A stretch of 27,370 bases of DNA from Candidatus Thorarchaeota archaeon (GTDB lineage: Archaea; Asgardarchaeota; Thorarchaeia; Thorarchaeales; Thorarchaeaceae), in the NCBI GenBank assembly GCA_048882485.1, contig JBHLRP010000046.1, positions 1 to 27,370 on the forward strand, read 5' to 3'. The notes below the pieces were generated by a model that was not told where the DNA came from, made no database searches, and saw only the letters and a program-made list of their open reading frames with translations. How positions within the stretch are numbered: the first letter of the stretch is position 1; each line of letters starts with the position of its first letter. Positions 364 to 27,370 of the stretch are shown piece by piece. A program made the translations under genes and the position numbers.

Positions 364-490
364 CCACCAAGCAAATTTATTCCTTTGGTAAGGCAATTCA
401 TCATTTCAGCAAAATACCATTCATTTTATTAGCCAGCACCACCATTAATGATGTTTGGTCTTTGACTTGGGACTGCGCGTGGTGTCCAGA

Positions 491-9400: not shown

Positions 9401-9849
9401 GCAATTTCAGGGATTATGGCAACACTCTCGAGGTCCAGTGACTCGAGGTCTCTTGCTCTTGCCACAGCCATCTCGATTAGACGTTTGGCCTTCTTGGTTG
9501 CTCCTTTCATATCATGCATTGTGCACCAAGATACATGCTCTCGAATGTTAACCATCTCAAAGAGGAACCTGTTGAGACCTGCACCTTCGATCGTCTTTCG
9601 GAAAATTGGTTCATGAGTTCTTGGAGTGCAGGATGCCACGATCACTCTGTTCAAGCCATACTTGGCAATCGAATCCTGTATGATCCTTAGACCGTCCGTC
9701 GAGCAGGTAAACATCAGGTCTGCTGAATGAGTCACATTGGGTAGAGATGCTGCATGGTCACTCACTGCTACAACATCAACACTGGCTGCAATGTTCAAGC
9801 CACAATGACAGACGAAGACCCCAATCCTCGCATCACTTTTTGCACTCAT
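6472..9849 (-). CDS. hdrA: Large heterodisulfide reductase A-like flavoprotein with an inserted GltD/NfnB-type FAD/NAD(P)H oxidoreductase module (HdrL-like)
   Basis: HdrA N-terminus 'IGVFVCHCG', 'ASCTPRTHE', 'NIREHVSW', GGGVAG and DCAIC. Insert 'PCRNACP...LGRVCHHPCE..C', GAGPSG, GGGNVG. HdrA C-terminus 'CVGSRD', 'HPKLRPV' and two CxxCxxCxxxCP. Likely start is ATG 9849 (MSAKSD), not the ORF-track start 9957. Confidence 0.88.
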   Translation of the reverse strand: MSAKSDARIGVFVCHCGLNIAASVDVVAVSDHAASLPNVTHSADLMFTCSTDGLRIIQDSIAKYGLNRVIVASCTPRTHEPIFRKTIEGAGLNRFLFEMVNIREHVSWCTMHDMKGATKKAKRLIEMAVARARDLESLDLESVAIIPEIAVIGGGVAGISAALAAANGGYQVHLIERLPTIGGQMALLDKVFPQNDCAICILGPIMASVEQHPNINLMTYSELEEVEGFVGNFKLKVKKKARYIDPEKCNSCGECVPECPMTISNRYDFGLTESAAIYRPFPQAVPNTYTIEKLGISPCRNACPAKVNNQAFIGLYKDGRLKEALDVMRKSAPFQRVLGRVCHHPCETDCVRGEHDEAIAIRHLKRYVADYVAEYEKDRPEKIEPRLRKKVAVVGAGPSGLTCALDLLKKGYPVTVFDSSDTPGGMITSSIPNYRVSNEVSMYDINWILDHGIDLQLNTTIGTDITLKQLKKDYKAVYLAIGSQSPATLSLEGGDSKGVMLGLPFLQDAKKGKKPKNMGERVIIIGGGNVGIDCARTSVRLGAKKVTLVCLETRDLTSRDRMPAHDWEIEDAEEEGIVIMGSLGPVRILEKNGKVAGLETTMCTSVYAADGSFAPRFSDVSGPTIKGDTVIIAIGQRTDLSGLEKLDSTAWGTLSVREVSLETNQKGVFAGGDVVLGPSSVIEAIAQGKEAAESIDRYLQKVDLLEGRAMEERVVPSEEVDTTQLKHGARVPIRKLGRSKRRGTFDEIELRLSKRAAAFEANRCLSCAVCSECEMCLEKCEPDAIIHDMEDEVIDLNVGAIIVATGGESYEPYESREYGYGLIPNVITNAQFERITNAAGPTHGKIRRLTDAKTPESIAFVQCVGSRDPRAKQDYCCYFGCENSLKQATQIKEKYPETEVFIYAIDVRTHGPGYEDLYQRALDMGIIVIKGKASELEAVPETDRVRVLSEDLYIGRNTSFTYDLVVLATAMRPAGGTSDLARTLGVNTDGYGFFLCAHPKLRPVESYKDGIFFAGACLGPTDIRNAVFSGKGAAAMAQSLISAGKFDIEPIYAEIDHEICNQCELCSQLCPYGAPTFEDEKMTVVKELCQGCGTCSAGCPNNAIDMRHYRWNQIMSMVDAAIKRQ

Positions 9850-10252
9850 AACTGCACTCTCGTGTAACAGAGGTTCCAGGAGAAGGAGGTCCGATAATAT
9901 GCAGGTTGTGTACGTTTGGTGACGCGGTGGATGAAATCTGGGCAGACACGGACACATGTTCGTGGTTCAATGTGCCTACAGAACCGTAGTGATAATGAAT
10001 CGGTTTCAGAATGAAATAAAGCTAGTGTGTTATATATCGTGCAAATTCGATAATAAGATGAGCGATAATGTGCTCTAGAGATGAAATCATGTCCGATTTC
10101 GCCATAGGAATGTCATATTACGAAAATGTATCTTCAAAGGCAAATTTGCTTCCAATTTAACATAAGTTGGCAGATCTCTCCCAAGCACCTCGAAAAAGGG
10201 AAGAGCTCCTAGATTTGAAGTTTAGATCAAGAAATGAAGCGGAGTCTAATAA

Positions 10253-13706: not shown

Positions 13707-13967
13707 GATTAATTCGAGCTATTCGCAAATTTCACAAATGCATTCATGATATTGCCGAAGAATAGGATAGAAGAAGTGAAGACTGACTCATCCTTGCGCT
13801 ATATGACATACGCAGAGTTCATGCTTCTTGCAATTCAAATGCCCTATGATGCCAAAAAGGGACACTTCGTAACCTTGAAAAGGATACCCCTGACTGGGTC
13901 GCGCTATATTTAGAGATACATTTCAGGAAAGAGCGAATGTTCATGAAGACGCTATTTGGGTGAAGCT

Positions 13968-14912
13968 ATGAGCAAGCGAAAATACATCAAGCAGTACAAA
14001 TGGTCTAATGTTTTCGCAATGATGCGAGGAGGAGGAGGGGAGCTAAAGGAATGCACTGATGATTTCGAAGGACGCTTGGTGGTCATCACAGGTGCAACAT
14101 CAGGAATCGGATATGTAACTGCAAGAGAGTACGCGTCACATGGCGCAAACCTCCTTGTAATTAATCGTAATGAAGAAAAGTCGATCGCCCTATGTGAAGA
14201 GATTCGTCAGGAATTTCAAGTGGAAAGCGATTATAAGATTGCAGATTTTTCACGATTATCTGAAGTGCGCAAGGTTGGAAAGGAACTTCTAGAGTCAGAC
14301 CTAGACATCGATGTTCTTATCCATAATGCTGGTATCTATTCAACGAAAAAGATAATCACTGAAGATGAGAACGAGCTGGTCTTTCAAGTAGACTATCTTG
14401 GGTCTTTCGTCCTGAATTATATGCTCAAGGATAAACTGAAAGCACGCGGAAAAGCGCGTATCATCTTTGTTAATTCAGAAGGTCATCGATTTGCTGTTTG
14501 GGGCATAGGACTGCATGACCCTACATATGAAAAACGTAGACATTCCGGTTTAGGGAGTTATGGTGTAGCGAAGACAGCCCAGCTTCTTTCGATGATCAAA
14601 TTTGCTGAATATTTCGAAGGGAGCGGCGTGACCATAAACGCGATGCACCCAGGAACTGTCAAAACCAATACTGGTTCAGACAATGGTCGAATATACCGTT
14701 GGTATAAGAGAAACTTGGTCGATCGTATTTCCAAAGATCCACAAATATCTGCAACAGCACTTTATTATCTGGGAGTTTCTAAGGAAATGGATGAAATAAG
14801 TGGCAAGTTCTTCAATCTAACAAAGGAGGAAGAACCCGCACCTCCAGCATTAGATAGGGAGGTAGCGGAGGAGCTTTGGTATAAATCAATAGAAATGGCT
14901 GATTTGGAATGA
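13968..14912 (+). CDS. Short-chain dehydrogenase/reductase (retinol-dehydrogenase/WWOX-like subfamily)
   Basis: TGATSGIG, HNAG, YGVAK (YxxxK) and HPGTVKT. A GGGTGA RBS precedes ATG 13968. Confidence 0.88.
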   Translation: MSKRKYIKQYKWSNVFAMMRGGGGELKECTDDFEGRLVVITGATSGIGYVTAREYASHGANLLVINRNEEKSIALCEEIRQEFQVESDYKIADFSRLSEVRKVGKELLESDLDIDVLIHNAGIYSTKKIITEDENELVFQVDYLGSFVLNYMLKDKLKARGKARIIFVNSEGHRFAVWGIGLHDPTYEKRRHSGLGSYGVAKTAQLLSMIKFAEYFEGSGVTINAMHPGTVKTNTGSDNGRIYRWYKRNLVDRISKDPQISATALYYLGVSKEMDEISGKFFNLTKEEEPAPPALDREVAEELWYKSIEMADLE

Positions 14913-16507
14913 GCGAGAGCAATCATAGAACAGTTATTGTCGGCGGGGGAATGGCAGGCTTAACAGCTGCCGTGTATTTATCAAGGGCTGGACATGACGT
15001 CCTTTTGCTAGAGAAGAACAAGGAATGCGGCGGACTCCTGAATTCATTTGAAAGAAACGGATTCACCTTTGATGCAGGTGCAAGATCAATACTGAATGCT
15101 GGAATAATTCGACCTATGCTAAATGAACTGGGAATTGAGCTTGAATTTCTTGATAGCCCTGTATCAATAGGAATCGAGAGTGATATCATCCCTATGACTC
15201 CGCAAACTGGCTTGGATGACTATAAGCGATTGCTAGAGAAGTTATATCCTGAAAGTGTCAATGATATCGACAAAATCATCTCGAAAATTGAGAGGATTAA
15301 GAAAGATATGGGGATTCTATATGGTATTGATAATCCCTATTTCAGGGATATGAAAAGCATAAGCTATCTCCTCAAAGAACTCCTTCCTTGGTTTGGAAAA
15401 TTCATATTCGCCCTACGTCGAATGGGCAAAAACAACGAACCTGTTGAATCCTTTTTGGAAAGACTGACTTCAAATCAGTCCCTCATCGACATCATCGCTC
15501 AGCATTTCTTCAAGAAGACACCGACGTCTTTCGCCTTGGGCTACTTCTATGTATACACTGATTATATCTATCCAAAGGGAGGTACAGGCCAGTTACCGAA
15601 GGCGCTAGTGCGAAAAATCATTGAAGGGGATGGAAAGATTCAGACAGATACTGAAATTACCGAAGTGAATCTAGCTGATAAGAAGTTGAATGACAAGGAT
15701 GGTAACACGTATTCATATGATACTCTCATCTGGAGCGCAGATTTGAAGACATTGTATCGAGTACTAAAAACCCAGGGTTTGGGAGAGGAGGATACTCGAA
15801 AAATCATTGAGCAGAAAGATCTGCTACTATCAAAGCGCGGATGCGATTCTATCTATTCATTATACGTTGGTGCAGATATCCCCCTGGACTCCTTTGGTTC
15901 CATTTCTAACGGACATTTCTTCTATACACCGTTGAAAAGAGGTTTAGGTGAGATTCATTGGTCCGAGCTAGATTCTTTGATCGAGAATTTTGAAACTAGA
16001 TCAAGGGAAGAAGTTTTGCAATGGTTGGACAAATATTGTCAATTGACGACATATGAAATATCGATTCCAGCGCTCAGAAATGCCGCATTAACTCCCGAGG
16101 GAAAAACGGGCCTGATAATAAGCATGCTCTTTGAATACGATTTAATCAAAAAAGTCAGGGATGCCAACTGGTACGATGAATTCCGAGTCGAGGTCGAAAC
16201 CCGAATGTTGGATATGCTTTCGAATTCCATCTATCCAGGTCTGAAGGACAAGGTGCTCTTTCAATCATCTGCAACCCCACTCAGTATTGAAAAGATTGCA
16301 GGAACTTCAGAAGGAGCTGTTGTAGGGTGGTCATATTTATCACCCGTCCCTGTTGTAGACAGTCTCCGAAAAATGTCAAGCTCAGTTAAGACGCCGATTC
16401 CAAACGTATACCAAGCAGGCCAATGGGCTTATAGTCCAGCGGGAATACCTACTGCAATCCTTACGGGCTGGCATGCTGCGCAAAATGTAATGAAGACCAA
16501 GAAGTGA
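14909..16507 (+). CDS. Phytoene-dehydrogenase-like (CrtI superfamily) FAD-dependent oxidoreductase
   Basis: 'IVGGGMAGLTAA..L...G..V.LLEK...GG....F..GF.FDAG', YPKGG, 'ATP', and 'TPIPNVYQAGQW...GIP.A..G'. ATGA overlap with the SDR gene implies translational coupling. Confidence 0.85.
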   Translation: MSESNHRTVIVGGGMAGLTAAVYLSRAGHDVLLLEKNKECGGLLNSFERNGFTFDAGARSILNAGIIRPMLNELGIELEFLDSPVSIGIESDIIPMTPQTGLDDYKRLLEKLYPESVNDIDKIISKIERIKKDMGILYGIDNPYFRDMKSISYLLKELLPWFGKFIFALRRMGKNNEPVESFLERLTSNQSLIDIIAQHFFKKTPTSFALGYFYVYTDYIYPKGGTGQLPKALVRKIIEGDGKIQTDTEITEVNLADKKLNDKDGNTYSYDTLIWSADLKTLYRVLKTQGLGEEDTRKIIEQKDLLLSKRGCDSIYSLYVGADIPLDSFGSISNGHFFYTPLKRGLGEIHWSELDSLIENFETRSREEVLQWLDKYCQLTTYEISIPALRNAALTPEGKTGLIISMLFEYDLIKKVRDANWYDEFRVEVETRMLDMLSNSIYPGLKDKVLFQSSATPLSIEKIAGTSEGAVVGWSYLSPVPVVDSLRKMSSSVKTPIPNVYQAGQWAYSPAGIPTAILTGWHAAQNVMKTKK

Positions 16508-16515
16508 TTCTAGTT

Positions 16516-17220
16516 TCACTGATTACGAGCAGCAAGATACGCCTTGTTCTCTCTTTCAATCGCTTCCTTATGAGTGGTTAGTGGAGCTGAAATTGCATCC
16601 AGGAGCTTTTGGGTAACGGTCCCTGATTCAACTATTTGGATACCTGCTTCCTCCGCAGCTGCATAGACCTCTTTCGCTAAGCTCTCTTGATATTTCAAGC
16701 GAGATGCATGGGGTCGTAGAATAGGCCCAATGAAATCAACACCTGAATTATCAGCAATCTCTCGAGCAATATGTGTGACAACCTCGAAGTTTCCCATTTC
16801 AAACCACCCCCCACTGGACACGAATACAATCTTTGAGATGTTAACATTATCGTGAAACTTGGCTCGTGTTCTATCATTCTTTATCTCTAATAGAGGTTCG
16901 ACGAGAGGCATTAATCTGTTCAGAAGATTCTGGAAATTACCCGGTAAGGGCAGATAGATTGGAGTTGCAAGAACAAGTATGTCAGCTTCTCTTGCCTTTG
17001 CATATACCTGCTCCATATCGTCAGTATGAATACATACTCCTACTTTCTCATACCAACATTGGAAGTCTCCAATGCATGGTCTTATCTTCAGATCCTTTGA
17101 AAAAAGCAAGTCTACAGTTGCCCCCGCTTTCCTCATCCCTTCAAGCAATGGACCGAGTATCAAGTGGGTGTTTCCCTTTTCCTTATTCGGACTCCCATTA
17201 ATTGCTAGTACGTCCGTCAT
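16516..17220 (-). CDS. Flavodoxin family / iron-sulfur flavoprotein (Isf)-like NADPH-dependent FMN reductase
   Basis: 'INGSP...GNT', 'PCIGDFQCW...GVC...DDM', 'ADILVLATPIY'. Confidence 0.85.
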   Translation of the reverse strand: MTDVLAINGSPNKEKGNTHLILGPLLEGMRKAGATVDLLFSKDLKIRPCIGDFQCWYEKVGVCIHTDDMEQVYAKAREADILVLATPIYLPLPGNFQNLLNRLMPLVEPLLEIKNDRTRAKFHDNVNISKIVFVSSGGWFEMGNFEVVTHIAREIADNSGVDFIGPILRPHASRLKYQESLAKEVYAAAEEAGIQIVESGTVTQKLLDAISAPLTTHKEAIERENKAYLAARNQ

Positions 17221-17318
17221 TTCACATCCCTAACCAATCCTGATTGAGACCTGTACTGATGTAAGAAGATTTCTATCCGGAGGGGAGAAATATGACCTGC
17301 ACATCCAAGTCTGTATGT

Positions 17319-18581
17319 CTAGGATGAAAAATGAATCATTGAAAACTGATTTCTTTTCTTCTTGATTACTATAGTGAGCACAATCAAGCCTGCGATGATG
17401 GGGATTGAAGCACCAAGATAGCTGTAGAGCAGTGATGGTGTCGTATTACCAGTGGTGGGTTCGCCATTCGGTGCGGTTTTGTAATCAATAGTCGACCAAT
17501 TGAGTCTAAATGAATTTGCTGAGGGAACAAATTCCGCTAGATAGGCGCGAGCTTTTTCAACATTCAATGCACCATATCCCGATTTCTCATCCCATCCAAT
17601 GTCAAGCATGTCTGTCGCACCCCAGACCAACGCATCTTCAATTTGACTGTTTGATGCCCATGGAAATTGATTCCAAAGGAGAACAGCTGAAGCTGCAGCT
17701 ATTGGAGTGGAACAGGATGATCCTCCAAAGGTGCCATAATTGCCTGTGGTCTGCATATATGCAGGCACACCACCCGCTGGAGCAACTAGAAATAGCTGTT
17801 CGCCATAACCACCTTCATTATATGTGCCGGTTCTATCAAATCTTCCAATAACTCGAACAAATGGCAACGACTGAGGCACATCCTTTGGATGCAGCGGACA
17901 TAGAACATTATCACATCCAGCGAAGAAGAGTGCCTTTCCGTTTTCATATAGTTCTGAGACCTTATTCCTAAGTTCGACTAAAATCGGATCATCGAAGTCA
18001 ATCAAATACACTGTGGCAAGAAAACTCATCGTAAAGACCATTCTTCCGAAGCTCGTACCCCAATCGAAAATGTCTATCAATTTCTGCATGTATATTCGAT
18101 ACGAGGCAACATCCTCAACAGGATAGGCACCCCAAGGCCATGCACTATACAACGGGGCGTTTACGATTCCTGCCACACCTACTTCGTTGTTTATTGTGGA
18201 AGCAGCTACGGATGCAACCGCTGCTTCATGAGAACTTGAGCTAGAAGTTGGATAAGGCAAGTATGAAGTAGAACTGCTATCCCATGAGAAACTGGCCTTT
18301 GCTGTTATATTCAGGTCTCCATCTTGATCATTAATAATAGCCTCCCCGACTACACATAGCCCAATAGCATCAGGTGAATTGAAAGAATAACCATAGTCCC
18401 AGACGCTGTGTATCTTAATGGCATCCAAATGCCAAGGGTCACCTTCAGGGTCGTTCGGAATGAATCCCTGAACAAGAAGGATATTTCCAAACAAATGGGC
18501 AATGACCAAGAATATTATTGCACTCATAAGAGTGAATGATTTTGAGAAATGGCACTTCGAGATTGCTTCCTTATTGCCCAT
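17319..18581 (-). CDS. Divergent subtilisin-like (S8) protein, secreted with a C-terminal TM anchor
   Basis: Signal-like helix, 'PNDP...WHL..I', 'HEAAVASVAA...NN..GVAG', 'LVAPA', 'FGGSSCSTP', 'ATDM...GWD..SGYG.LNV'. TM helix and KKKR tail. Start uncertain (ATG 18581 or 18527); the ORF-track TTG at 18641 lies at the edge of the repeat's U-rich tail. Confidence 0.75.
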   Translation of the reverse strand: MGNKEAISKCHFSKSFTLMSAIIFLVIAHLFGNILLVQGFIPNDPEGDPWHLDAIKIHSVWDYGYSFNSPDAIGLCVVGEAIINDQDGDLNITAKASFSWDSSSTSYLPYPTSSSSSHEAAVASVAASTINNEVGVAGIVNAPLYSAWPWGAYPVEDVASYRIYMQKLIDIFDWGTSFGRMVFTMSFLATVYLIDFDDPILVELRNKVSELYENGKALFFAGCDNVLCPLHPKDVPQSLPFVRVIGRFDRTGTYNEGGYGEQLFLVAPAGGVPAYMQTTGNYGTFGGSSCSTPIAAASAVLLWNQFPWASNSQIEDALVWGATDMLDIGWDEKSGYGALNVEKARAYLAEFVPSANSFRLNWSTIDYKTAPNGEPTTGNTTPSLLYSYLGASIPIIAGLIVLTIVIKKKRNQFSMIHFSS

Positions 18582-18644
18582 GTCCAACAACCCAGATGAG
18601 AAGGAATCACGGACATACTGGAAATTAAAAACACTCATCAAAGC

Positions 18645-18786
18645 AATAGAAAGAATGGAAGGAGGGGCGACGGGTGCACCCTTGCAGGGTGTGTCAAATG
18701 CGGCCTATTCGTTTACAGCCGCACCTTCATCCGCCGCCTTTCACGAGCTCATTCCTGACTACATCGCGACACTGCGTCTTCTTCTC
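18645..18786 (-). repeat. Copy 3 (most diverged) of the vhuU-3'-end/SECIS/terminator module
   Basis: Minus strand translates CRDVVRNELVKGGG*, versus vhuU CREIVRKELVTGGG*. Followed by SECIS, hairpin and pyrimidine tail. No vhuU 5' part upstream. Confidence 0.85.
18693..18730 (-). ncRNA. Orphan eukaryote-like SECIS element (copy 3)
   Basis: AUGAA-GGUGCGGC-UGU-AAA-CGAAUAG-GCCGCAUU-UGAC: UGA/GA core, paired helix II, and AAA 11 nt after the core. Confidence 0.72.
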
Positions 18787-21179
18787 AAAATCAGAAATCC
18801 AGTAGCAATAGCAACAATAGCTACTAGAATTCCTGAGTAGACCAATCTAATTGATTGAAGTCCTATTGGCTGTGCCATTTGAACTGCGATTTCTAATTCT
18901 GATAGCATTCCAAATATCGATTGCAGAGAATCATAGTAATTACTGGGATTACTGACATTCGCGTAATGTGTGATGCTTTGGTGTAGATCTTCAGCCGCTT
19001 CCATTAAGAGACTGTATATTTCAGGATATTCTTCTTGTCGATTACCTGTTGAAGCAACAACGAAGTCCATTGTGCTGACTGCTTCTTTCCAATATTGTGG
19101 AATGAAACCTCTCTGGAGCGTATCAACGTCAAACACTGAGAGATGGTGACAGCCGTCCTGAGCGTAGCTCATAAGACCGTATGGGAACGCCCACAACCAG
19201 TGTTCATTCCATGTCCACTCCATTCTACTGGACGCATGATCATAGTTGCCCCAGGAAAATGCATCATGTGGGTGCCTTAATCCTAGAGCATGACCCGCCT
19301 CATGCATGGTGACATGAGTAAAGCCCAAAGTCCTATCCACATATGCTAAAATGGCTGCATCAAAACTTGGAGCAATAGTTCCGTTATCTTCAAAGACAAT
19401 GTGGTACTGTCCATGGATACGAATAGGAACTGAAACCGACACATTACCTGAGAGAGTTGATAGGCTACCAAGCGTGTTATTCAGAATTTCAGTAAAGGAT
19501 AGCGATTGTGTATATCTTTGGTAGTTATATTCATCGAGAAAGAAGACTTTCAAGGTGCCTTGATTTACTACAACTGACAATTCAGCGTTCATATGAGTGT
19601 CCCCGATATTTCCTTCGAGTCCAAGATATTCTAGAAGATCAATGTGATTTCCTTGAGGGATTTCACAATCAGTAGCAACCAATTTCATATACTTGAAAGC
19701 ATGTTCTGGATTCAAGGAAGCTGCCTCCTGTCGTACTATGAGAAAGGCATGCTCACCTGCACTATTCGTTATCTCTCCACTTGCGGAAGGATCAAAGTCC
19801 CAACCTGCTGGAAGTGCGAATAGAAACTCTCGGATTACTAGTTGCTCTGGGGTTGTAGCATTAAACAATGAAGTGTATCGGTTAAGCAAGTATTGGATAA
19901 TCCGTTCCCGATCATAGGTATGAGCTTCAGAATTGGTGCTGTCTTGGAGGATTGATGCAAAACTAGAATCGGATTCCCAATCCCATTCAGTGAGAGAATA
20001 AGTCCAATCGATTTGAGGATTTACTTGTTTAAACTCAGTAACTATGTATTCACAATCGAGACTTGTGCGGAAGTCATAATACGTGGGATCGAGATCTATA
20101 GTAAGTATTTCGAACTTCACTTCTTTAAACTTGGAAATACTCTGATGACTGGTTCCATAGAGTGGTAAATAATAGTAGGAAGGCAGAAGCTTACATTCCA
20201 CCGCCTTAGCAATATACTTGACCAAATCTTGGGTGAGTGCTTCTTGGGGATTGGTTCTATCTTCATATGTCCAAATGGGGGGAACATTTTCCTGAGTCAC
20301 ACTGTTCACATTAGGTGCCGCGCCTAGGGGAGGACCAGTGTAATAAGTTGGACCCGCTGAGAGGTCCAGCCACAGCAATCGAGACTGCTTCCCACCTCCA
20401 GCGATTTGATAGGTTGATTGCCAAGGCATTGAGATGGAGGTGTAGCCGTTAATCTCAGCATCTATCTCATTCTCTGATGAATTATAGTAATAGGGATGAT
20501 GGCCAGCTGGGTCGAATGAATAGGTGTCTATGATGATCAAAGTGGGAGTAGGGTCAGAAATGATGTTCTCGGTGATATAGGTCTCAATAAGACTTGAGGG
20601 AGCGTAGTAAGCCCTAGGGTGGTCCAGATTGATAAACCAAGGCGAGCAATCCTCCCTTGAATTTTCATAAAGATAGGCCCGATAGGCTTGGACATGGCTA
20701 AGACCAAGATATGATATGTCATAGGACAATGAGAAATTCATATCGTAGATCAATTGGTCTAATAGGCCATAATGGAGTGTGTTGATTGGCGCATACCATT
20801 GTGGGAGAGCACCAACAAGTGAGTCCTCAGAAATTCTTGTTTCATCGATACCCAAGAATACTATATTGATGTCATAATTCATGTGTTCGGGGAGGACTGG
20901 CAAAGCGAAAGATTCCTGAGCTACATCAAGGTTTCTATATTCTGCTAGTGCGGTCGAATCCGATGGCTTAATGCTGGTAGGTGAACTACTTCGAGTTTCG
21001 GATGCAAGGACCGCAAACCCGTTCGTAAGCAGAAGGATAATGACAACTGCGCCTAAGATGATTTTGCTCGAATCTTGAGATTCTAGATTTGGAAATCCCA
21101 TAGACATGATAATCACGTGAACTATGGAATACTTGAATATCAGAACTCGTGAACTCCCTAGTTGGTTTTTCATATTCAT
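18759..21179 (-). CDS. Secreted, membrane-anchored zinc metalloprotease (metzincin)
   Basis: HEAGHALGLRHPHD (HExxHxxGxxH) and a Met-turn-like LMSY. N-terminal hydrophobic signal, C-terminal TM and RRRR tail. The true start may be downstream (MSMGFP). Confidence 0.82.
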   Translation of the reverse strand: MNMKNQLGSSRVLIFKYSIVHVIIMSMGFPNLESQDSSKIILGAVVIILLLTNGFAVLASETRSSSPTSIKPSDSTALAEYRNLDVAQESFALPVLPEHMNYDINIVFLGIDETRISEDSLVGALPQWYAPINTLHYGLLDQLIYDMNFSLSYDISYLGLSHVQAYRAYLYENSREDCSPWFINLDHPRAYYAPSSLIETYITENIISDPTPTLIIIDTYSFDPAGHHPYYYNSSENEIDAEINGYTSISMPWQSTYQIAGGGKQSRLLWLDLSAGPTYYTGPPLGAAPNVNSVTQENVPPIWTYEDRTNPQEALTQDLVKYIAKAVECKLLPSYYYLPLYGTSHQSISKFKEVKFEILTIDLDPTYYDFRTSLDCEYIVTEFKQVNPQIDWTYSLTEWDWESDSSFASILQDSTNSEAHTYDRERIIQYLLNRYTSLFNATTPEQLVIREFLFALPAGWDFDPSASGEITNSAGEHAFLIVRQEAASLNPEHAFKYMKLVATDCEIPQGNHIDLLEYLGLEGNIGDTHMNAELSVVVNQGTLKVFFLDEYNYQRYTQSLSFTEILNNTLGSLSTLSGNVSVSVPIRIHGQYHIVFEDNGTIAPSFDAAILAYVDRTLGFTHVTMHEAGHALGLRHPHDAFSWGNYDHASSRMEWTWNEHWLWAFPYGLMSYAQDGCHHLSVFDVDTLQRGFIPQYWKEAVSTMDFVVASTGNRQEEYPEIYSLLMEAAEDLHQSITHYANVSNPSNYYDSLQSIFGMLSELEIAVQMAQPIGLQSIRLVYSGILVAIVAIATGFLILRRRRSVAM

Positions 21180-21232
21180 GCTTGATTAAATTCCCGAAAA
21201 ACCAACCACACCCTTTGCTTTTGTGCAAATTC

Positions 21233-21376
21233 AAATAGAAAGAAAGGATAGAAGGAGCAAGACTGGCGCACCCTTGCGGGGCTGTCCAACCCAGTCCAAG
21301 TCTTTGCGACCGGGTCTTCATCCGCCGCCAGTCACGAGCTCCTTCCTGACTATCTCGCGACACTCCCCATCATCAT
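21233..21376 (-). repeat. Copy 2 of the vhuU-3'-end/SECIS/terminator module
   Basis: Ungapped match of 21241-21376 to 22401-22536 (hand count 111/136 identical). Encodes DDGECREIVRKELVTGGG*, identical to VhuU, with four third-position synonymous changes. Confidence 0.93.
21284..21321 (-). ncRNA. Orphan eukaryote-like SECIS element (copy 2)
   Basis: AUGAA-GACCCGGUC-GC-AAA-GACUUG-GACUGGGUU-GGAC: 9/9 helix II positions pair (including GU), with AAA at the same spacing. Confidence 0.75.
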
Positions 21377-21470
21377 AGATCAGCCGGACTGAATGAAATA
21401 TAGGCTTAAATGCGTTCGAGTGGTGACACGATGAATGTTTAATCTAAAGAATATATGAGGATTAATAACA

Positions 21471-22283
21471 ATGCCATTTTTTGACAATGAAGGAGTTAGA
21501 ATATATTATGAAATTGAAGGGGGAGGGCCACCTGTGATAATGATTCATGGATTTGCCGCAAATATCGAAGCTAATTGGAAAGCTACGAATTGGGTAGATG
21601 TTCTTAAGGATGATTATAGATTGGTACTTGTAGATTGTCGTGGGCACGGGAAAAGCGACAAACCCAAAGATCCTGCTCAGTATGGAGAGAAGATGAACGA
21701 TGACATCGTTAAATTGCTTGATCATTTATCTATTGAGAGGGCTAATTTCTTCGGATATTCTATGGGGGCACGAATGACTACAGATATTTTGCTTCAAAAG
21801 CAAGAACGCTTCATTAGTGCTATTATTGGAGGATTCCCACTCTACTATCCTAAAAGAAGTACAAAACTCATGGCTAAAGTAATGATGAAAAGATGGATAA
21901 AAGGTTTAAAAAAAGCAAATCTTGATGATGTCAACGATAAAGCAGCTTTAAGATTCCGAAAGAGAATTTCACAATATCCTGACTCTCAATCACAAGATCT
22001 TGAAGCTTTAGTTTATGTTTTGGAAGGGGATATTCAACGTCCAGATGGTATACTCCCAACTGATCCTGAAAGGAAAGAAGCTCTTAGAAAGGTCAATGTG
22101 CCAGTTATGGCCGTTTACGGAGCTGATGACGATGTTATTAAAAGAGGTAAATCCACAGGAGCTCAATTAGTACCAGGTTCTTGTCAATTCCAAATCGAAG
22201 GAAAAGACCATATTACTGTTGTCGCAGATCCCAAATTTCACATGGTCGTAAAGGCTTTTTTGGATTTCGTAAACAAGAAATAG
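21471..22283 (+). CDS. Alpha/beta-fold hydrolase (Abhydrolase_1)
   Basis: 'G.GPPVIMIHGF', 'DCRGHGKS', nucleophile elbow GYSMG, acid residue in 'GADD' and catalytic His in 'DHI'. Confidence 0.9.
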   Translation: MPFFDNEGVRIYYEIEGGGPPVIMIHGFAANIEANWKATNWVDVLKDDYRLVLVDCRGHGKSDKPKDPAQYGEKMNDDIVKLLDHLSIERANFFGYSMGARMTTDILLQKQERFISAIIGGFPLYYPKRSTKLMAKVMMKRWIKGLKKANLDDVNDKAALRFRKRISQYPDSQSQDLEALVYVLEGDIQRPDGILPTDPERKEALRKVNVPVMAVYGADDDVIKRGKSTGAQLVPGSCQFQIEGKDHITVVADPKFHMVVKAFLDFVNKK

Positions 22284-22392
22284 CCCAATACCGATTTTTC
22301 GGATTAATTCACCTAAGAGAAATTCCATAATGCTATACCATTGTATAGAGCAGGTTATATTCAGTAATGCCCGGGCTACCCTAAGTTGTATT

Positions 22393-22536
22393 GAAGAAAG
22401 AGAAAGGATGGAAGGAGTGTGACGGGCACACCCGAGCAGGGTTGTCAAGCCCGGTCCGTTCGTTTACGACCGCGCCTTCATCCGCCGCCGGTCACTAGCT
22501 CCTTCCTGACTATCTCCCGACACTCCCCGTCATCAT
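22393..22536 (-). repeat. Copy 1 (functional) of the vhuU-3'-end/SECIS/terminator module
   Basis: Forms the real 3' end and 3' UTR of vhuU and ends in the pyrimidine tract CCUUUCUCUUUCUUC. Confidence 0.93.
22444..22481 (-). ncRNA. Eukaryote-like SECIS element of vhuU
   Basis: AUGAA-GGCGCGGUC-GU-AAA-CGAACG-GACCGGGCU-UGAC: AUGA/GA kink-turn core, helix II and apical AAA 11 nt from the core. Lies ~93 nt downstream of the in-frame UGA at 22574-22576. Confidence 0.88.
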
Positions 22537-22642
22537 CTTCCTCAACGACGACGAAATGAGCGCCGCATGATAGTCAGCAGTCGTAGCACCGCACAACCAT
22601 CTCGACGAGGTTGAGCAGTCCTTCTGGTATTTCTTCAGTCAT
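22478..22642 (-). CDS. vhuU: F420-non-reducing [NiFeSe]-hydrogenase small selenopeptide VhuU (54 aa, Sec at codon 23)
   Basis: Hand translation: MTEEIPEGLLNLVEMVVRCYDC-U-LSCGAHFVVVEEDDDGECREIVRKELVTGGG*. Supplies the D-x-U-x-S-C-x-x-H L2 motif missing from VhuA. Starts 11 nt after the vhuA stop with a GGTGTGA RBS-like sequence and is followed by a SECIS. Confidence 0.93.
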
Positions 22643-22653
22643 GTATCACACCG

Positions 22654-23970
22654 TTATCTCTTCACCATAGGCTCTGGGAGCTTCAAGCTCTCGTGAGCCT
22701 TGTCTTCGAAAATCTGCTTTGCTGCGACCATGAGAGACTTCTCTATGCCCGCAATGTTGTTGTTAGTGGCGACGACGAGGTTCGCTTTAGTGAGCATCCC
22801 CTCGTCGTCTGAGATGTAGTTATGCATGAGAATGCCTCGAGGCGCCTCCACGATACCTACTCCGTCTCCCGCTTTAGGTTCTACATTGGAGAGTTTCACA
22901 TCTGTGCTGACAATGTCGGGATCTTTGAGCAAAGTGGCAATCCATTCGAATGCTTGTACTAACTCCACAATCCTCGCATAGTGATACGCAAAGGTGTGGT
23001 GTGAAGGTCTACCTACCAGCTCTCTCATTTCCTTAAGCGCCGCGTCTGCCAGAGGAGTCGCCATCTTTTCATTGACGTTACACCGGGCGAGGGTGTTTGC
23101 ACGCCATATGCCGTCGGGGTATCCTGCTGGCTTATAGTACATGTGAGTTGCATAGCTGTGTTTCGCTACATGTTCACCATAGTACTTTGTGTAGTCCTTT
23201 GGCTCGAAATCTGCAACTATATCGCCGCCTGGCTCTTGCACTCGTACAGTACCATCATAAATGTCAAGTTCTCCTTTGTTTGAGAGACCTATGTAATAGG
23301 TTGGAACTACAGCGACCTTGGTGATCACATCCAGATAGTCTGTTACCACCTTCTTTGCAAGGTCGACTGTATTCAATGTAAGTTGCTGAATCTCTTCGAG
23401 TCGTCCAATGAAGAAGTCACGGTCTTCCTCCGCCATTGATGTTAGCATTCCACCGGGAATTCCTGTAGTCGGATGGACAGCTTTTGCACCGATGACTCTG
23501 ATTAGCTCCTGACCAAACTCCATCATTTTGATTGCTTGAACAGCTACGTCAGGCAGGTCTCTCAACACGGCTGCTACATTTCTATCCGCAGGGTTCGCAA
23601 ACGGCCCATATACAAAGTCAGGAGCGGCAAGTGCATAGAAATGGATTGCATGCGACGAGAACTGCTTTGCCTCTATCATCAACCTACGTAGTTTGATTGC
23701 AGCAGGAGGAGGCGTAATATCCCATGCCGCCTCAACAGCCTTGATTGATGCAAGATGATGAGGAATCGGGCAGATGCCGCAAATTCTAGGAGCAATCCGT
23801 GGAGCCTCCTCCATGGGGCGTCCCTCTAGGAATTTCTCAAAGAACCTCGTGCTATTCACGTTGAATTGCACATCTTTGACCTTGCCATCCTTGCCTAGTT
23901 TGAGTGTCAATGAGCCATGACCCTCAAGCCGAGTCACTGGATCAATTCGAATGGTTTTCTCATCTGTCAT
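22654..23970 (-). CDS. vhuA: F420-non-reducing (group 3c) hydrogenase large subunit VhuA/MvhA, lacking the C-terminal L2 motif
   Basis: 'IDPVTRLEGHG', 'RFFEKFL.GRP', L1 motif RICGIC, 'EAPRG.L.H.Y', 'NLVVAT.NN'. Ends without DPCxxC, which marks the split VhuA/VhuU type. Confidence 0.92.
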   Translation of the reverse strand: MTDEKTIRIDPVTRLEGHGSLTLKLGKDGKVKDVQFNVNSTRFFEKFLEGRPMEEAPRIAPRICGICPIPHHLASIKAVEAAWDITPPPAAIKLRRLMIEAKQFSSHAIHFYALAAPDFVYGPFANPADRNVAAVLRDLPDVAVQAIKMMEFGQELIRVIGAKAVHPTTGIPGGMLTSMAEEDRDFFIGRLEEIQQLTLNTVDLAKKVVTDYLDVITKVAVVPTYYIGLSNKGELDIYDGTVRVQEPGGDIVADFEPKDYTKYYGEHVAKHSYATHMYYKPAGYPDGIWRANTLARCNVNEKMATPLADAALKEMRELVGRPSHHTFAYHYARIVELVQAFEWIATLLKDPDIVSTDVKLSNVEPKAGDGVGIVEAPRGILMHNYISDDEGMLTKANLVVATNNNIAGIEKSLMVAAKQIFEDKAHESLKLPEPMVKR

Positions 23971-24890
23971 TTCGTCTTCGCCTCCTCGCGCTTGATTCTC
24001 ATTCTTCCAAGGTGACTAGTAGCATAGTCGAACCTCCAGAAAGTCCCCAACGGGTCTTTCACTTGTTCCGCTAACTTCTCGGGCTCAATTGGTGCATATG
24101 ATCCTAGCATCGAAATTGATGCTGCGCCATGGTCCTGCGTAACTGGGGGCGGTGGACCAAAGCATCCACGACAAGTGGCACCCTTGTTCACGCACTGACC
24201 TTCACACAGACCCCAGGTTGAAGAGCCTACGCAAATATAGCCTTGTTCCAGTAGGCATCTGTCTGGGTCAGCAATCCCTTGATATGGTCGTAGAATCTCA
24301 TCGATAGGAGTGTCCTTCTTCTCTCGATTGCAATAGTGGCACACAGTATGTGGCGGAAGGTCTATGGGCTTGCCTGAGAGAAGTGCACTCACTGCTGTGT
24401 AGATGAGGTCAGGAGTGGGCGGACAGCCGGGAAGGTAGATATCGATGTCTACAAAATCAGAGTTTGGCCTCACCACGGGGGCTATTCCAGGCAAGTTCTC
24501 ATGGGGAACCTCCCCATCCTTCACGGTCTTATTGTTCCTGAATTTGACATCATAGCACTCCTCGATATCAGAGAAATTGGCCAGACTTGGTATCCCACCA
24601 AAGCATGAGCATGAACCGAAAGCTATCAGTATCTGACATTTCTCGCGCATTACCTTCAGCAAATGAATATCCTCCTCAGTTCTTGCCATTCCCTCGTAGA
24701 GGCCCACAACGATTGATTTGTCTTCATAGCTCTCTAGATGATGAAGCTTGAAGTCTGCAACTGCTTGCCAGTATTTGATCTCCAGCGCTGGAAGGACCTC
24801 CGCCAATCGAAGGTGGATATCCACTAGACTCTGGAAGCAACCCCAGCAGCTCGAACCTTGGCCCATTGCAATTGGAACTGGATTTGCCAT
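23967..24890 (-). CDS. vhuG: F420-non-reducing hydrogenase small subunit VhuG/MvhG
   Basis: 'SSCWGC', 'AFGSCSCFGGIP', 'LPGCPP', 'VCHYC.R', 'CLLEQGYIC.G', 'CRGCFGP'. ATGA overlap with vhuA. Confidence 0.92.
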   Translation of the reverse strand: MANPVPIAMGQGSSCWGCFQSLVDIHLRLAEVLPALEIKYWQAVADFKLHHLESYEDKSIVVGLYEGMARTEEDIHLLKVMREKCQILIAFGSCSCFGGIPSLANFSDIEECYDVKFRNNKTVKDGEVPHENLPGIAPVVRPNSDFVDIDIYLPGCPPTPDLIYTAVSALLSGKPIDLPPHTVCHYCNREKKDTPIDEILRPYQGIADPDRCLLEQGYICVGSSTWGLCEGQCVNKGATCRGCFGPPPPVTQDHGAASISMLGSYAPIEPEKLAEQVKDPLGTFWRFDYATSHLGRMRIKREEAKTK

Positions 24891-24892
24891 CT

Positions 24893-25126
24893 CTAGACCT
24901 CCCTTAGTTGGAAGACGAGTTCATGATGCTCTTCTCCAGCAATTTCTACATCGCCCCACCGAAGTAGACCAAGGAGGTTCCACATGAGCACCTTCTTGTC
25001 AATCTCTGTTTTCTCGCTGATTGTGTTGACACTAGCTGGTCCTTCCTTTAGTGATTCAAGAATGGACTTCCTCTGTCGTGTTACAACAGCATAGTTCTGG
25101 TCAAAGTACATCGTGAACTCTGTCAT
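24893..25126 (-). CDS. Small winged-helix (ArsR-like fold) protein within the vhu operon
   Basis: 'RKSILESLKEGPASVNTISEKTEIDKKVLMWNLLGLLRWGDVE' fits a wHTH pattern. ATG 25126 overlaps the vhuD stop (ATGA); 2 nt gap to vhuG. Confidence 0.75.
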   Translation of the reverse strand: MTEFTMYFDQNYAVVTRQRKSILESLKEGPASVNTISEKTEIDKKVLMWNLLGLLRWGDVEIAGEEHHELVFQLREV

Positions 25127-25563
25127 ACCCATGACCTCCCTATTGGACCAACTTCTTTCACTTGTTCTATTAGCTTAGCGACCCCATCCGCGAAGATCTG
25201 GGCCTCAGAGGCGCTTGCCCATTGAAGCCGAATTCGCCTCGGGTCAATGCCAGCCTGCTTCACGGCTTCAGCCATAATCGCCCATCTCGCTCGGAGTTTG
25301 AGGTTTCCGGAGGTATAATGGCAATCTCCGGGGTGGCATCCTGACACTAGCACTCCATCAGCACCCTGGTTCAGTGCACTGAGAATGAACTCGATATCGA
25401 TGCGACCTGTGCAGTTCACCCGAATGATCCGTGCATTTGGAGGATACTGAATCCTGCTAGTACCAGCTAGGTCAGCCCCCGCATACGAGCACCAGTTGCA
25501 GCAGAATGCCACAATTCGGGGCTCCCATTCAGTATCCGCTTTCACTTTTGCCGCAGTAGTCAT
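25123..25563 (-). CDS. mvhD: Hydrogenase iron-sulfur delta subunit MvhD/VhuD (Cys form)
   Basis: 'EPRIVAFCCNWCSYAGADLAG.SR.QYP', 'CTGRID', 'GADGVLVSGCHPGDCHY..GN', 'WASASEA'. Start ATG 25563 overlaps the hdrA stop (TGATG). Confidence 0.93.
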   Translation of the reverse strand: MTTAAKVKADTEWEPRIVAFCCNWCSYAGADLAGTSRIQYPPNARIIRVNCTGRIDIEFILSALNQGADGVLVSGCHPGDCHYTSGNLKLRARWAIMAEAVKQAGIDPRRIRLQWASASEAQIFADGVAKLIEQVKEVGPIGRSWV

Positions 25564-27329
25564 CAAGCAGTACCTCCCTTGGGCTCCATAGGGGGACATA
25601 GAAACGCCTCAACCATTGCCAAGATCTGGTCATCGGTTGAATGAAGCATCATGATGGCGGAGCTTGGACACGCAGCAGCGCAAGTCCCACATCCATGACA
25701 TTTCGCTTCGGTCACAAATGCTATCGGCGGGTCGTGAGATTCATCCATAGCTATGGCTCCATATGGGCATGCTGAGATGCAGGTGTGACAAGAAGAGCAG
25801 AGCTCTGGGGTCACTCGCGATACTGTGGCTTCAATCTCCACCTCTCCACGAGCCATCAGACCTACTGCCTTTGCAGCTGCCCCACTTGCGTCAGTTATCG
25901 CCTCAGCGGCACTCTTTGCCGCTTGGGCACCACCAGCTATCATAACGCCGGCGGTGTGAGTGGTGAGTGGAGCTAGCTTCACATGCTCAGGATTGAAGAA
26001 GCCATCAGGACTTCTAGTGAGGCTAAAGACCTTTGAAACATCTTCAGATCCCTCAGGCGGAACCATCGCAGAGGCCAATACCAGCAGGTCTGGCTTCAGC
26101 ACCAAGTCATCGTCTGAGAATACGTCATGCCAATGTAAGACAAGCTCTCCATCAACGACTTCTGGCCGTGGTTTTTGCCCAGGCGGAAACTTGCTATAGA
26201 TGACATGCTTGGCCCTTGCTTCTCTATGAATCGCTTCATGCCCCTTGCCGTAGGTCCGGAGGTCTTCGTAGAGTATGAGTATCTCTTCGGTATCATCCTT
26301 GAGCTCAGCTGCAGACTTTGCAATTGCAGTGCAGCACACTCTCGAGCAATGCTCGTGTCCCTTTACGCCAGCCTCACGTGAGCCCACACAGCCAATGAAC
26401 GCTACCGTCTTTGGCGCTTTGCCATCACTTGGCTTCAACACCTCTCCTTTGAGTCGCATCTCCTCTAGCTCTGATAGTGTCACGATGTCGGGATGCTCCC
26501 CATAGGAATAGTATCCATCTGGCTTGAAGGGTTGGATTCCTGTGGCCACAATTATAGTTCCTACTCTATAGGTTGCATCTTTCCCGTTTGTGTTTACTGT
26601 AATGTCAAAGTTGCCGATATACCCATCAAGCTCAGTGACAGTTGAGTCTGTCAACATCTTGATCTTGTCATGTTTCTGGATTCGCTTAATCAGCTGATCC
26701 GCCAGAACGTCTCCCTTCTCATTAGTTGGGTAGACACTCGCTAGCTTTGCTACCTGTCCCCCGAGCTTCGATTCACGCTCGACAAGTATTGCATCAAAGC
26801 CTCGATCGGCGATATCAAGAGCGGCACGCATACCCGTGACTCCGCCTCCTACAATCAGGGTAATTGGTGCCACCTCAACGCTCTTGACTGGCAATGCCTC
26901 AAGAAGCGCAGCACGTGCAACTGACATTCTCACAAGATCCTTAGCCTTTTCTGTCGCCTCCTCCGGTTGCCGCATATGGCACCAAGACACATGTTCTCGG
27001 AGATTGACCTGATCGAATAGGTATCGATTTACATCTGCTTCCTCGACCACTCTCCTAAACGTAGGCTCGTGCATTCTCGGGCTACAGCTCGCTACAACCA
27101 CGCGGTTCAGATTATACTCCTTGATACTGTCCTTGATGAGCTGCTGTCCAGAGTCCGCACACATGAACATGGTTGTCGTCGAGAACGCGACATGAGGCAA
27201 GCTCTCCGCGCTATTGGCTACAGCCTCCACATCCACAGTTCCAGCAATATTGTGCCCGCACATGCAGACGAATACGCCAATTCTTGGCACTACAGCTGCA
27301 GCATCTATTCCAGCTTCTGCTTCAGTCAC
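25563..27329 (-). CDS. hdrA: Heterodisulfide reductase subunit A-like flavoprotein (short form, 588 aa)
   Basis: 'IGVFVCMCG.NIAG', 'ASCSPRMHE.TF', 'NLREHVSW.H', GGGVTG, 'CVGSRE...CSRVCC', 'H.KL.P' and two C-terminal CxxCxxCxxxCP. GGAGGTGA RBS before the GTG start. Confidence 0.9.
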   Translation of the reverse strand: MTEAEAGIDAAAVVPRIGVFVCMCGHNIAGTVDVEAVANSAESLPHVAFSTTTMFMCADSGQQLIKDSIKEYNLNRVVVASCSPRMHEPTFRRVVEEADVNRYLFDQVNLREHVSWCHMRQPEEATEKAKDLVRMSVARAALLEALPVKSVEVAPITLIVGGGVTGMRAALDIADRGFDAILVERESKLGGQVAKLASVYPTNEKGDVLADQLIKRIQKHDKIKMLTDSTVTELDGYIGNFDITVNTNGKDATYRVGTIIVATGIQPFKPDGYYSYGEHPDIVTLSELEEMRLKGEVLKPSDGKAPKTVAFIGCVGSREAGVKGHEHCSRVCCTAIAKSAAELKDDTEEILILYEDLRTYGKGHEAIHREARAKHVIYSKFPPGQKPRPEVVDGELVLHWHDVFSDDDLVLKPDLLVLASAMVPPEGSEDVSKVFSLTRSPDGFFNPEHVKLAPLTTHTAGVMIAGGAQAAKSAAEAITDASGAAAKAVGLMARGEVEIEATVSRVTPELCSSCHTCISACPYGAIAMDESHDPPIAFVTEAKCHGCGTCAAACPSSAIMMLHSTDDQILAMVEAFLCPPMEPKGGTA

Positions 27330-27370
27330 TTTACTTCACCTCCCCTCGAGAGGACAATAGTTGCCCTCAT
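27326..27370 (-). CDS. 3' end of the upstream operon gene (possibly another HdrA-like polypeptide), truncated by the window edge
   Basis: Open frame ...MRATIVLSRGGEVK*, whose TGA overlaps the hdrA GTG (GTGA coupling). Identity is a guess from only 14 residues. Confidence 0.5.
   Translation of the reverse strand: MRATIVLSRGGEVK

Follow-up and report, generated by a model that had tools for sequence, protein, structure and literature searches.

The 3' end of vhuU, the gene of a selenocysteine (Sec)-containing hydrogenase peptide, is a real, recurrent landing site for accessory genes in Thorarchaeota, and it exchanges its selenocysteine insertion sequence (SECIS). We analysed a stretch of 27,370 nucleotides from a Candidatus Thorarchaeota archaeon, hereafter the window, which is the entire contig C46 of the source genome G000, a short-read metagenome-assembled genome (MAG) of 3.96 Mb (90.5% complete, 5.8% contamination). 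Three direct copies of a module, M, made up of the vhuU tail and its SECIS, lie in the window with unrelated genes between and behind them. The vhuU/SECIS case proved to be a special instance of a general process in G000, one of dozens of gene-swapping sites. Genomes are denoted by G###, genera of the family by g#, loci and contigs by L### (contigs of G000 by C), and runs by X#.

Module copies and cargo of the window

An initial annotation, made from the sequence of the window alone, had proposed three direct copies, about 140 bp each, of the vhuU tail with its SECIS, and all three were indeed found on the minus strand (Table 1). When the whole 3.96-Mb genome was searched, copy 2 showed 81.6% identity with copy 1 over 136 nt (E 5e-32) and copy 3 showed 79.7% identity over 133 nt (E 2e-25), the identity among the three copies being 77-82% (E 1e-18 to 1e-32). 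The coding parts of copies 1 and 2 differ, as had been claimed, in exactly the four synonymous codons named. Many changes were also present in their untranslated regions (UTR), as claimed, but they amount to 25 of 85 positions (ungapped) rather than about 21. A decayed fourth copy scored 13.1 bits, as compared to 9.7 bits for the best match in 1.09 Mb of control DNA. Its presence makes the flavodoxin, desaturase-like and SDR genes (13956-17220) look like older cargo; a desaturase/SDR pair directly follows a module in G096, G101 and G102.

The cargo was likewise as annotated, with an alpha/beta hydrolase (cassette A) and a metzincin protease (cassette B) between the copies and a subtilase (cassette S) after copy 3. 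The cassette B protein is a metzincin by motif, with only a weak Pfam match, to DUF7906, and no relative in PDB; the last five codons and the stop of its coding sequence (CDS) fall inside copy 3. Nine genomes have cassette S in a vhuU array, where it comes first, in the middle or last. After it in the window, at about 17270-17310, there may be a decayed tail, which was not significant alone.

Assembly GCA_048882825.1, which may stem from the same sampling campaign as G000, is 100% identical over window positions 17641-22974 and includes all three copies. Contigs of run X2, from another study (2023), span copy 3 and the joint between the metzincin and copy 2 without differences. A check for further copies in G000 revealed one on contig C8 (77554-77660) and one on C107 (5255-5329). 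The C8 copy (L091) is identical at 107 of 107 positions to the working allele of G015, is left-truncated, and lies at the very end of a contig without vhuU; the C107 copy is followed by a subtilase-type flank. These two are either dispersed array pieces or pieces of co-binned relatives.

Reordering and shared cargo among relatives

Comparison with relatives revealed that cargo and order differ, as expected of a recurrent landing site. In G005 (95% identical DNA; 4-10% divergence at fourfold sites) the order is vhuU-M-metzincin-M-hydrolase-M-subtilase, as compared to vhuU-M-hydrolase-M-metzincin-M-subtilase in G000, which is an exact swap of cassettes A and B with the joints inside the module. 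The left arm of each copy moves with the upstream gene and the SECIS side with the downstream gene. This pair of genomes supplies exact, testable junctions. Locus L146 displays a third order (M-metzincin-M-subtilase remnant-flavodoxin-short M-hydrolase), and in G004, G103 and G108 the subtilase lies directly behind vhuU.

Altogether, 55 spare module copies were present in 24 genomes, mostly of genera g1 and g5, in Thorarchaeota loci chosen because they matched the module; 14 metagenome contigs carry further spare copies. The arrays draw on a shared pool of cargo that includes a nucleotidyltransferase, an acyl-CoA ligase, an Ssb-like OB fold, the subtilase, PEPCK and beta-propeller proteins. 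The proposal of single-gene cassettes held for the most part: 28 of 42 intervals contain a single open reading frame (ORF), and the median interval is 1.3 kb. The commonest first cassette, a small ORF with a DUF6036 nucleotidyltransferase, resembles a pair of the toxin-antitoxin type (L035:3600-4351 and eight other loci), and in two genomes, G015 and G106, it shares its stop codon with the vhuU fragment of the spare copy.

Cassette A was also found away from vhuU. G020 contains an 88% identical hydrolase, and in G020, G097 and L148 the cassette precedes corA, flanked in G020 by 13-bp direct repeats. Homology between the window and the corA site breaks off at 21376-21378, right at the border of copy 2, and about 20 bases or less from the copy 1 tail. 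L146 is intermediate, as its hydrolase has a vhuU tail to one side and the corA repeat to the other. Since the unit is bounded alike at corA and at vhuU and an intermediate exists, cassette A has made use of two anchors that are unrelated, the duplications measuring 13 bp and about 145 bp. Its closest relatives lie on contigs of 31-36% GC, of which L149 and L150 share just the CDS and about 35 bases upstream; the GC content and NCBI labels point to a Lokiarchaeia-like source.

Exchange of SECIS alleles

Each incoming piece had been supposed to bring its own SECIS from a relative, and matches of both working and spare copies to foreign alleles support this. Copy 2 is identical at 138 of 139 positions to the working module of G005, as compared to 117 of 143 for the working module of G000 itself, and copy 3, on the 3' side of its core, is identical in G000 and G005 and precedes the subtilase in both. 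The working SECIS and UTR of G000 are nearest to those of another genus, in G081 (96%; genus g5) and G035 (92%), whereas its mvhA is nearest to that of the sister genome G005 (96% identical DNA); the working SECIS allele is thus incongruent with mvhA, and the same pattern was seen in G015. Since the 5' part of G000 vhuU retains a four-codon insertion typical of genus g1, the allele switch is located in the last ~15 codons. VhuU-type peptides are cleaved after a conserved His, which these last ~15 codons follow, and the swapped codons are synonymous or nearly so between alleles. Many spare copies match the working SECIS of another genome better than that of their own. The recoding signal of a selenoprotein is exchanged between genera as a by-product.

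Copies 2 and 3 had been noted to begin at nearly the same point in vhuU, but this does not generalise, and the spare copies have left ends scattered from position 2 to position 116 of the model. Those that reach 90% identity or more with a working allele vary in length from 29 to 139 nt, and the 14-bp core is missing from many copies of high identity. A full-length copy is sometimes found farther from vhuU than a short one (G096, G102), unlike what steady erosion behind a fixed site would give. Allele switches map to two sites or more, namely the core, which precedes the SECIS (copy 3 of G005), and the tail, as the hydrolase is preceded by different SECIS alleles in G000, G005 and L146.

RNA structure of the module

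In 27 working copies from 27 genomes, the AUGA and GA elements of a eukaryote-like SECIS were invariant and the stem covaried. The motif (AUGA, stem, A-rich loop and GA, downstream of a Sec gene) is present as in PMC4989117 and PMC11227280, and the loop is of the Thorarchaeia type (PMC11227280). The module RNA is predicted to form a three-way structure, in which an outer stem of the last ten codons and the pyrimidine tail, pairing coding bases 22499-22506 with tail bases 22410-22417, encloses the SECIS and a small GCAA-type hairpin. In this structure 90% of 796 cells were paired, as compared to 40-53% when it was slid, and 15 of 30 pairs had changed on both sides; the structure was drawn by hand from the same sequences, and the test leans in its favour. 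The consensus of RNAalifold itself was dropped, as it paired the AUGA core canonically. As modelled, the whole 110-140 bp is one conserved RNA domain, which would explain the conservation of the module at the DNA level across genera, and DNA so conserved would make a good recombination substrate.

With the lokiSECIS of VhuU (PMC4989117, PMC11227280), the module has in common the AUGA overlapping the stop codon (described for Loki VhuU.1 in PMC4989117), the A-rich loop and the GA after the stem. Here, this element is embedded in a larger three-way junction with the GCAA-type hairpin and the outer stem from the last codons, an extension not seen in the sections consulted of the two papers. A scan of window positions 17000-27370 against Rfam gave no match. 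For annotation, spare SECIS copies behind non-selenoprotein genes of Thorarchaeota are to be read as recombination scars and not as new selenoproteins.

The same architecture at other gene ends

Attachment based on or specific for the SECIS, as the initial annotation had it, was not supported, since some 50 gene ends of G000 that are unrelated to vhuU show this architecture too. Comparison of the genome with itself revealed 53 families of direct, mostly intergenic repeats bracketing genes, as compared to 7 inverted controls; 20 of the 53 have at least three copies, and the repeats are 20-450 bp long. The anchors are unrelated gene ends, both 5' and 3' (Table 1). The SECIS matters incidentally, as a long stretch conserved in DNA rather than as a recognition signal. 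Dozens of anchors at 5' and 3' ends make too many target sequences for one site-specific enzyme.

At trpS and rpL10e, duplicated 5' ends bracket cargo, so that the process also operates upstream of anchors, and contig C96 mixes copies of the rpL10e 5' end with copies of the 5S rRNA 3' end. On contig C15 (19400-50300; L087, L088), about 16 repeat copies hold cargo that is shuffled in G004, G005 and G011 and includes a group 3-type hydrogenase gene cluster; the C15 repeat and the vhuU core have a GGCGGCGG run in common. The C15 cassettes are rejoined at their repeats in relatives, and a YdeI gene is common to this array and to the G020 site beside cassette A.

Searches for recombinases and excision products

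The initial annotation reported no integrase in the window, and none was seen near the array or, by ORF clustering and coordinates rather than a per-ORF Pfam scan, in about 50 vhu loci, where remnants were absent too. G000 gave no match to PF00589, PF00239, PF02371, PF00078 or PF01797 (PF07508 and DDE transposases were not searched). The families searched stand for tyrosine and small serine recombinases, IS110, Y1 transposases and reverse transcriptases, and the genome is 90.5% complete. The trans-acting recombinase that had been postulated received no support, as PF00589 had no match in the array-bearing relatives G005, G009, G011, G015, G020 and G035 either, and no viral contig of IMG/VR carried the module when searched by coding arm and tail. 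Among family genomes, PF00589 is present in 28 of 81 (8 of 23 near-complete ones), with no match near a vhuU module. The remaining 53 contrast with 14 of 14 control genomes having a match, and G000 lacks even XerA. Boxes of the attC type (RYYYAAC...GTTRRRY) were absent from copies 1 and 3, with one isolated match in copy 2 (HattCI and IntegronFinder were not used).

Two full-length RadA-family genes are present in G000 (C45:20722-21438 and C22:16217-16906), both kept in 5 of 5 genomes tested, and the second, on C22, is a candidate for array machinery. RecT and Rad52 had no match in five genomes, while the DprA family gave short, weak matches in four of five and a full match in G034. Contigs of four runs showed no clean excision or empty-site joint, but contigs drop rare forms, so that this carries no weight. 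Joints 16507-22397, 18439-22397 and 22514-22404 did occur in run contigs with sides of just 21-34 bases, and they probably derive from relatives with other cargo.

Hydrogenase operon and features of the window

An operon of the order hdrA-mvhD-mvhG-mvhA-vhuU, on the minus strand, makes up the right half of the window, and tRNA-Sec was found in the genome. The vhuU stop codon at 22478-22480 doubles as the AUGA part of the SECIS core. The VhuU motif at 22574-22582 is DC-U-LSC, with a Cys adjoining Sec, and is kept across the family, unlike the usual DPCxxC-type spacing. In runs X4 and X5 the allele at 22625-22786 (mvhA end, vhuU start) differs from that of the window and run X2, although the metzincin region is identical; this is a tract recombined inside the species, adjoining the anchor. 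Outside the operon, the window encodes a second HdrA-like protein of 1161 aa with an inserted GltD-like NAD(P)H module (6472-9957). A gingipain-like C25 peptidase of 1227 aa with a propeptide and a C-terminal membrane anchor lies at 455-4138.

Table 1. Features of the window and other anchors in genome G000 (positions are those of the window unless a contig is named)
Feature	Position	Strand	Family, motif or score
Module copy 1, working: last 18 codons, SECIS, small hairpin, pyrimidine tail	22393..22536	-	
Module copy 2, displaced	21233..21376	-	
Module copy 3, displaced, decayed	18641..18780	-	
Fourth module copy, decayed, hairpin and tail only	13762..13815	-	13.1 bits
14-bp core identical in copies 1-3	22476..22489; 21316-21329; 18725-18738	-	
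Cassette A: alpha/beta hydrolase with own flanks; CDS 21471-22283, 38% GC	21377..22392	+	PF00561
Cassette B: metzincin-motif membrane-anchored protease; CDS ~21107-18759	18781..21232	-	HExxHxxGxxH motif
Cassette S: subtilase; CDS 17319-18641	17319..18640	-	PF00082
mvhA/vhuA, hydrogenase large subunit without C-terminal Ni motif; upstream part of conserved anchor	22654..23970	-	PF00374
vhuU, 54-codon selenopeptide; Sec TGA in frame at 22574-22576	22478..22642	-	
Anchor: tRNA 3' ends	contigs C26, C82, C71, C63		
Anchor: 5S rRNA	contigs C14, C96		
Anchor: uS19 3' end	contig C85		
Anchor: ahcY	contig C4		
Anchor: trpS 5' end with promoter and first codons	C29:32631-33731		
Anchor: rpL10e 5' end with promoter and first codons	C96:629-6476		

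Mechanism

The reading that we favour, with belief and doubt evenly balanced, is host homologous recombination on a conserved gene end with an illegitimate second joint, followed by reshuffling between the copies. From the copies, their reordering, the allele replacement, the generality of the architecture and the absence of the enzymes searched for, all of them observed, we infer the chemistry of insertion as follows. In a first step, DNA of a related Thorarchaeon would pair through RadA with the conserved mvhA-vhuU-SECIS stretch; a crossover in the last ~15 codons would import the donor SECIS, terminator and next gene, the far end of the donor would join the resident tail at a variable point with little or no homology, and the old tail with the old cargo would be pushed downstream. 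In a second step, the outcome of which is seen in the reordered arrays, unequal homologous exchange between two 25-140-bp copies flanking a gene may reorder or remove single cassettes or blocks, or move them between strains and genera. As the Sec codon provides a ligand of nickel, selection would keep the first place in the array for a working SECIS, with the swapped codons being synonymous or in the cleaved extension and the spare tails presumably acting as terminators for co-oriented cargo. Variable left ends, switches in both core and tail, and full-length copies behind short ones fit anchored homologous recombination with a variable joint, and a two-step model of this kind was proposed for Vibrio type VI secretion system (T6SS) and rhs arrays (PMC5361080). 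The exact swap of A and B, the incongruence of SECIS allele and mvhA, and the presence of two RadA-family genes also speak for it.

Several points weigh against this reading. At corA and at vhuU, cassette A ends at the same points, with a deviation of just 1-3 bp on the promoter side, and random illegitimate joints would rarely yield such reused ends. The joints of cassettes A and B show just weak similarity and no clear microhomology, the donor flanks being mostly unavailable. Many copies share 25-35 bp, and the corA site 13 bp, which is short for RadA, and RecT and Rad52 were not matched. The tRNA arrays of G000 start at the T-loop or anticodon loop, like integrase sites, and many spare copies are flush with the stop codon of the cargo, although later deletion could also give that. 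Short copies were not more decayed than long ones (rho -0.32), which favours the reading, but the tail is more conserved than the rest of the module, so that this test of length against identity is biased. Illegitimate recombination usually deletes resident DNA. In bacteria, such recombination is also orders of magnitude rarer than ordinary recombination (PMC5361080).

The reused ends of cassette A at two unrelated anchors and the intermediate L146 would be accounted for by a dedicated Thorarchaeota machine, possible but doubtful, that captures DNA units the size of a gene, their ends defined, and puts them in at the ends of conserved and highly expressed genes; the target would be duplicated or replaced over a variable length. 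It might be the second RadA paralogue, or a single-strand annealing or end-joining activity. The mostly one-gene units with a median of 1.3 kb, the cargo common to arrays with different anchors (YdeI), about 50 families per genome, exchange over 13-25 bp and the concentration of arrays in two genera all agree with such a machine. However, no candidate enzyme was identified for it, selection for promoter plus CDS together with trimming by deletion can also yield gene-sized units and conserved ends, and spare copies often match foreign alleles, which makes simple target duplication insufficient. The wider proposal, a genome-wide, integrase-free capture system of Thorarchaeota with its own enzyme, insertion at the end of nearly every kind of conserved gene, a donor end swapped in and a cassette pool extending across genera and Asgard classes, we likewise regard as unlikely; were it true, it could be tested most cleanly on the vhuU array, where two cassettes are exactly swapped.

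In the model of the initial annotation, a recombinase supplied in trans by a transient element would cross at the 14-bp core and the left arms would erode, as in accretion of cis-mobilizable elements (CIMEs). The orders of G000 and G005 could both be built by first-position insertion of A and B in opposite order, several allele switches lie at or near the core, the tRNA arrays have their integrase-like start points, and some tyrosine recombinase exists in 28 of 81 family genomes. We nevertheless consider this model improbable, as no such enzyme was found in G000, six relatives or about 50 vhu loci, no viral contig carried the module, many high-identity copies lack the core, switches occur in the tail too, dozens of anchors would demand dozens of specificities, and copies 1 and 3 have no attC-type R boxes.

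That strains were assembled into a chimera, or that the array is an old local duplication whose neighbours are fixed, is very improbable and largely refuted: G000 is a short-read MAG with contamination, the samples contain several strains with other hydrolase contexts and many contigs break at the module, but a second assembly is identical across the three copies, contigs of another study bridge copy 3 and the metzincin-copy 2 joint, the sister genome holds its own consistent, reordered version diverged by 4-10% at silent sites, and arrays with differing cargo occur in 24 genomes. Pure target-site duplication was set aside as spare copies often match foreign alleles, and retroposition was rejected, since the copies remain at the locus, the units include promoter-side DNA and no reverse transcriptase was found.

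Comparison with known systems

Gene transfer is frequent in Asgard archaea (PMC13247210), but hardly any mechanism has been described for it apart from integrase-bearing elements (PMC11529989) and integrons (PMC9668308). Our literature search met no description of such arrays in Thorarchaeota or of a SECIS as an integration or landing site. In the Asgard lineage studied here, accessory genes are acquired and rearranged without the usual integrases.

One likeness is with the 3'-end displacement arrays of rhs, contact-dependent inhibition (CDI) and Vibrio T6SS loci (PMC5361080; Jackson et al. 2009 as cited there), where a new module arrives at a conserved anchor and the old 3' end is displaced downstream in tandem as fragments of variable length, without an integrase; homology-facilitated illegitimate recombination followed by ordinary homologous exchange has been proposed for them. 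Their swapped 3' end is a new toxin tip and their cargo an immunity gene, whereas here the protein is unchanged, an RNA signal is swapped, the cargo genes, for metabolism and the cell surface, are unrelated, and the process extends to some 50 ends of housekeeping genes.

CIMEs and accretion of integrative and conjugative or mobilizable elements (ICE-IME; PMC5704250) are similar in their tandem units, direct copies of the target end, lack of an integrase of their own and restored target. CIMEs derive from integrase-bearing elements with a fixed att site, whereas no parent element or remnant was found here (in about 50 vhu loci and IMG/VR, although such elements can be rare), the copies are of about 25-140 bp and most units have one gene. 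Nor is a fixed att core common to all copies, as the left ends range over positions 2-116 and the core is absent from many, to which erosion could contribute.

Integrons and clusters of attC sites lacking integron-integrases (CALINs), including archaeal ones (PMC9668308), share the one-gene cassettes, common pool, reordering and overlap of the cargo stop with the repeat. Unlike them, the present arrays have neither IntI nor the R boxes of attC, their repeat copies the tail of the host gene itself, and their cargo, with promoters of its own, points in either direction. Partial anchor copies among cargo are also seen in additive islands anchored at tRNA genes and in tycheposons (10.1101/2020.12.28.424599), where active elements may be rare compared with island material; tycheposons use tyrosine or large serine recombinases at seven tRNA/tmRNA sites, whereas here the anchor is a selenoprotein CDS with its SECIS and no recombinase was found. 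The array is thus integron-like in outcome and CIME-like in layout, with rhs-type 3' displacement as its probable mechanism, and it departs from each of these systems in a defining feature.

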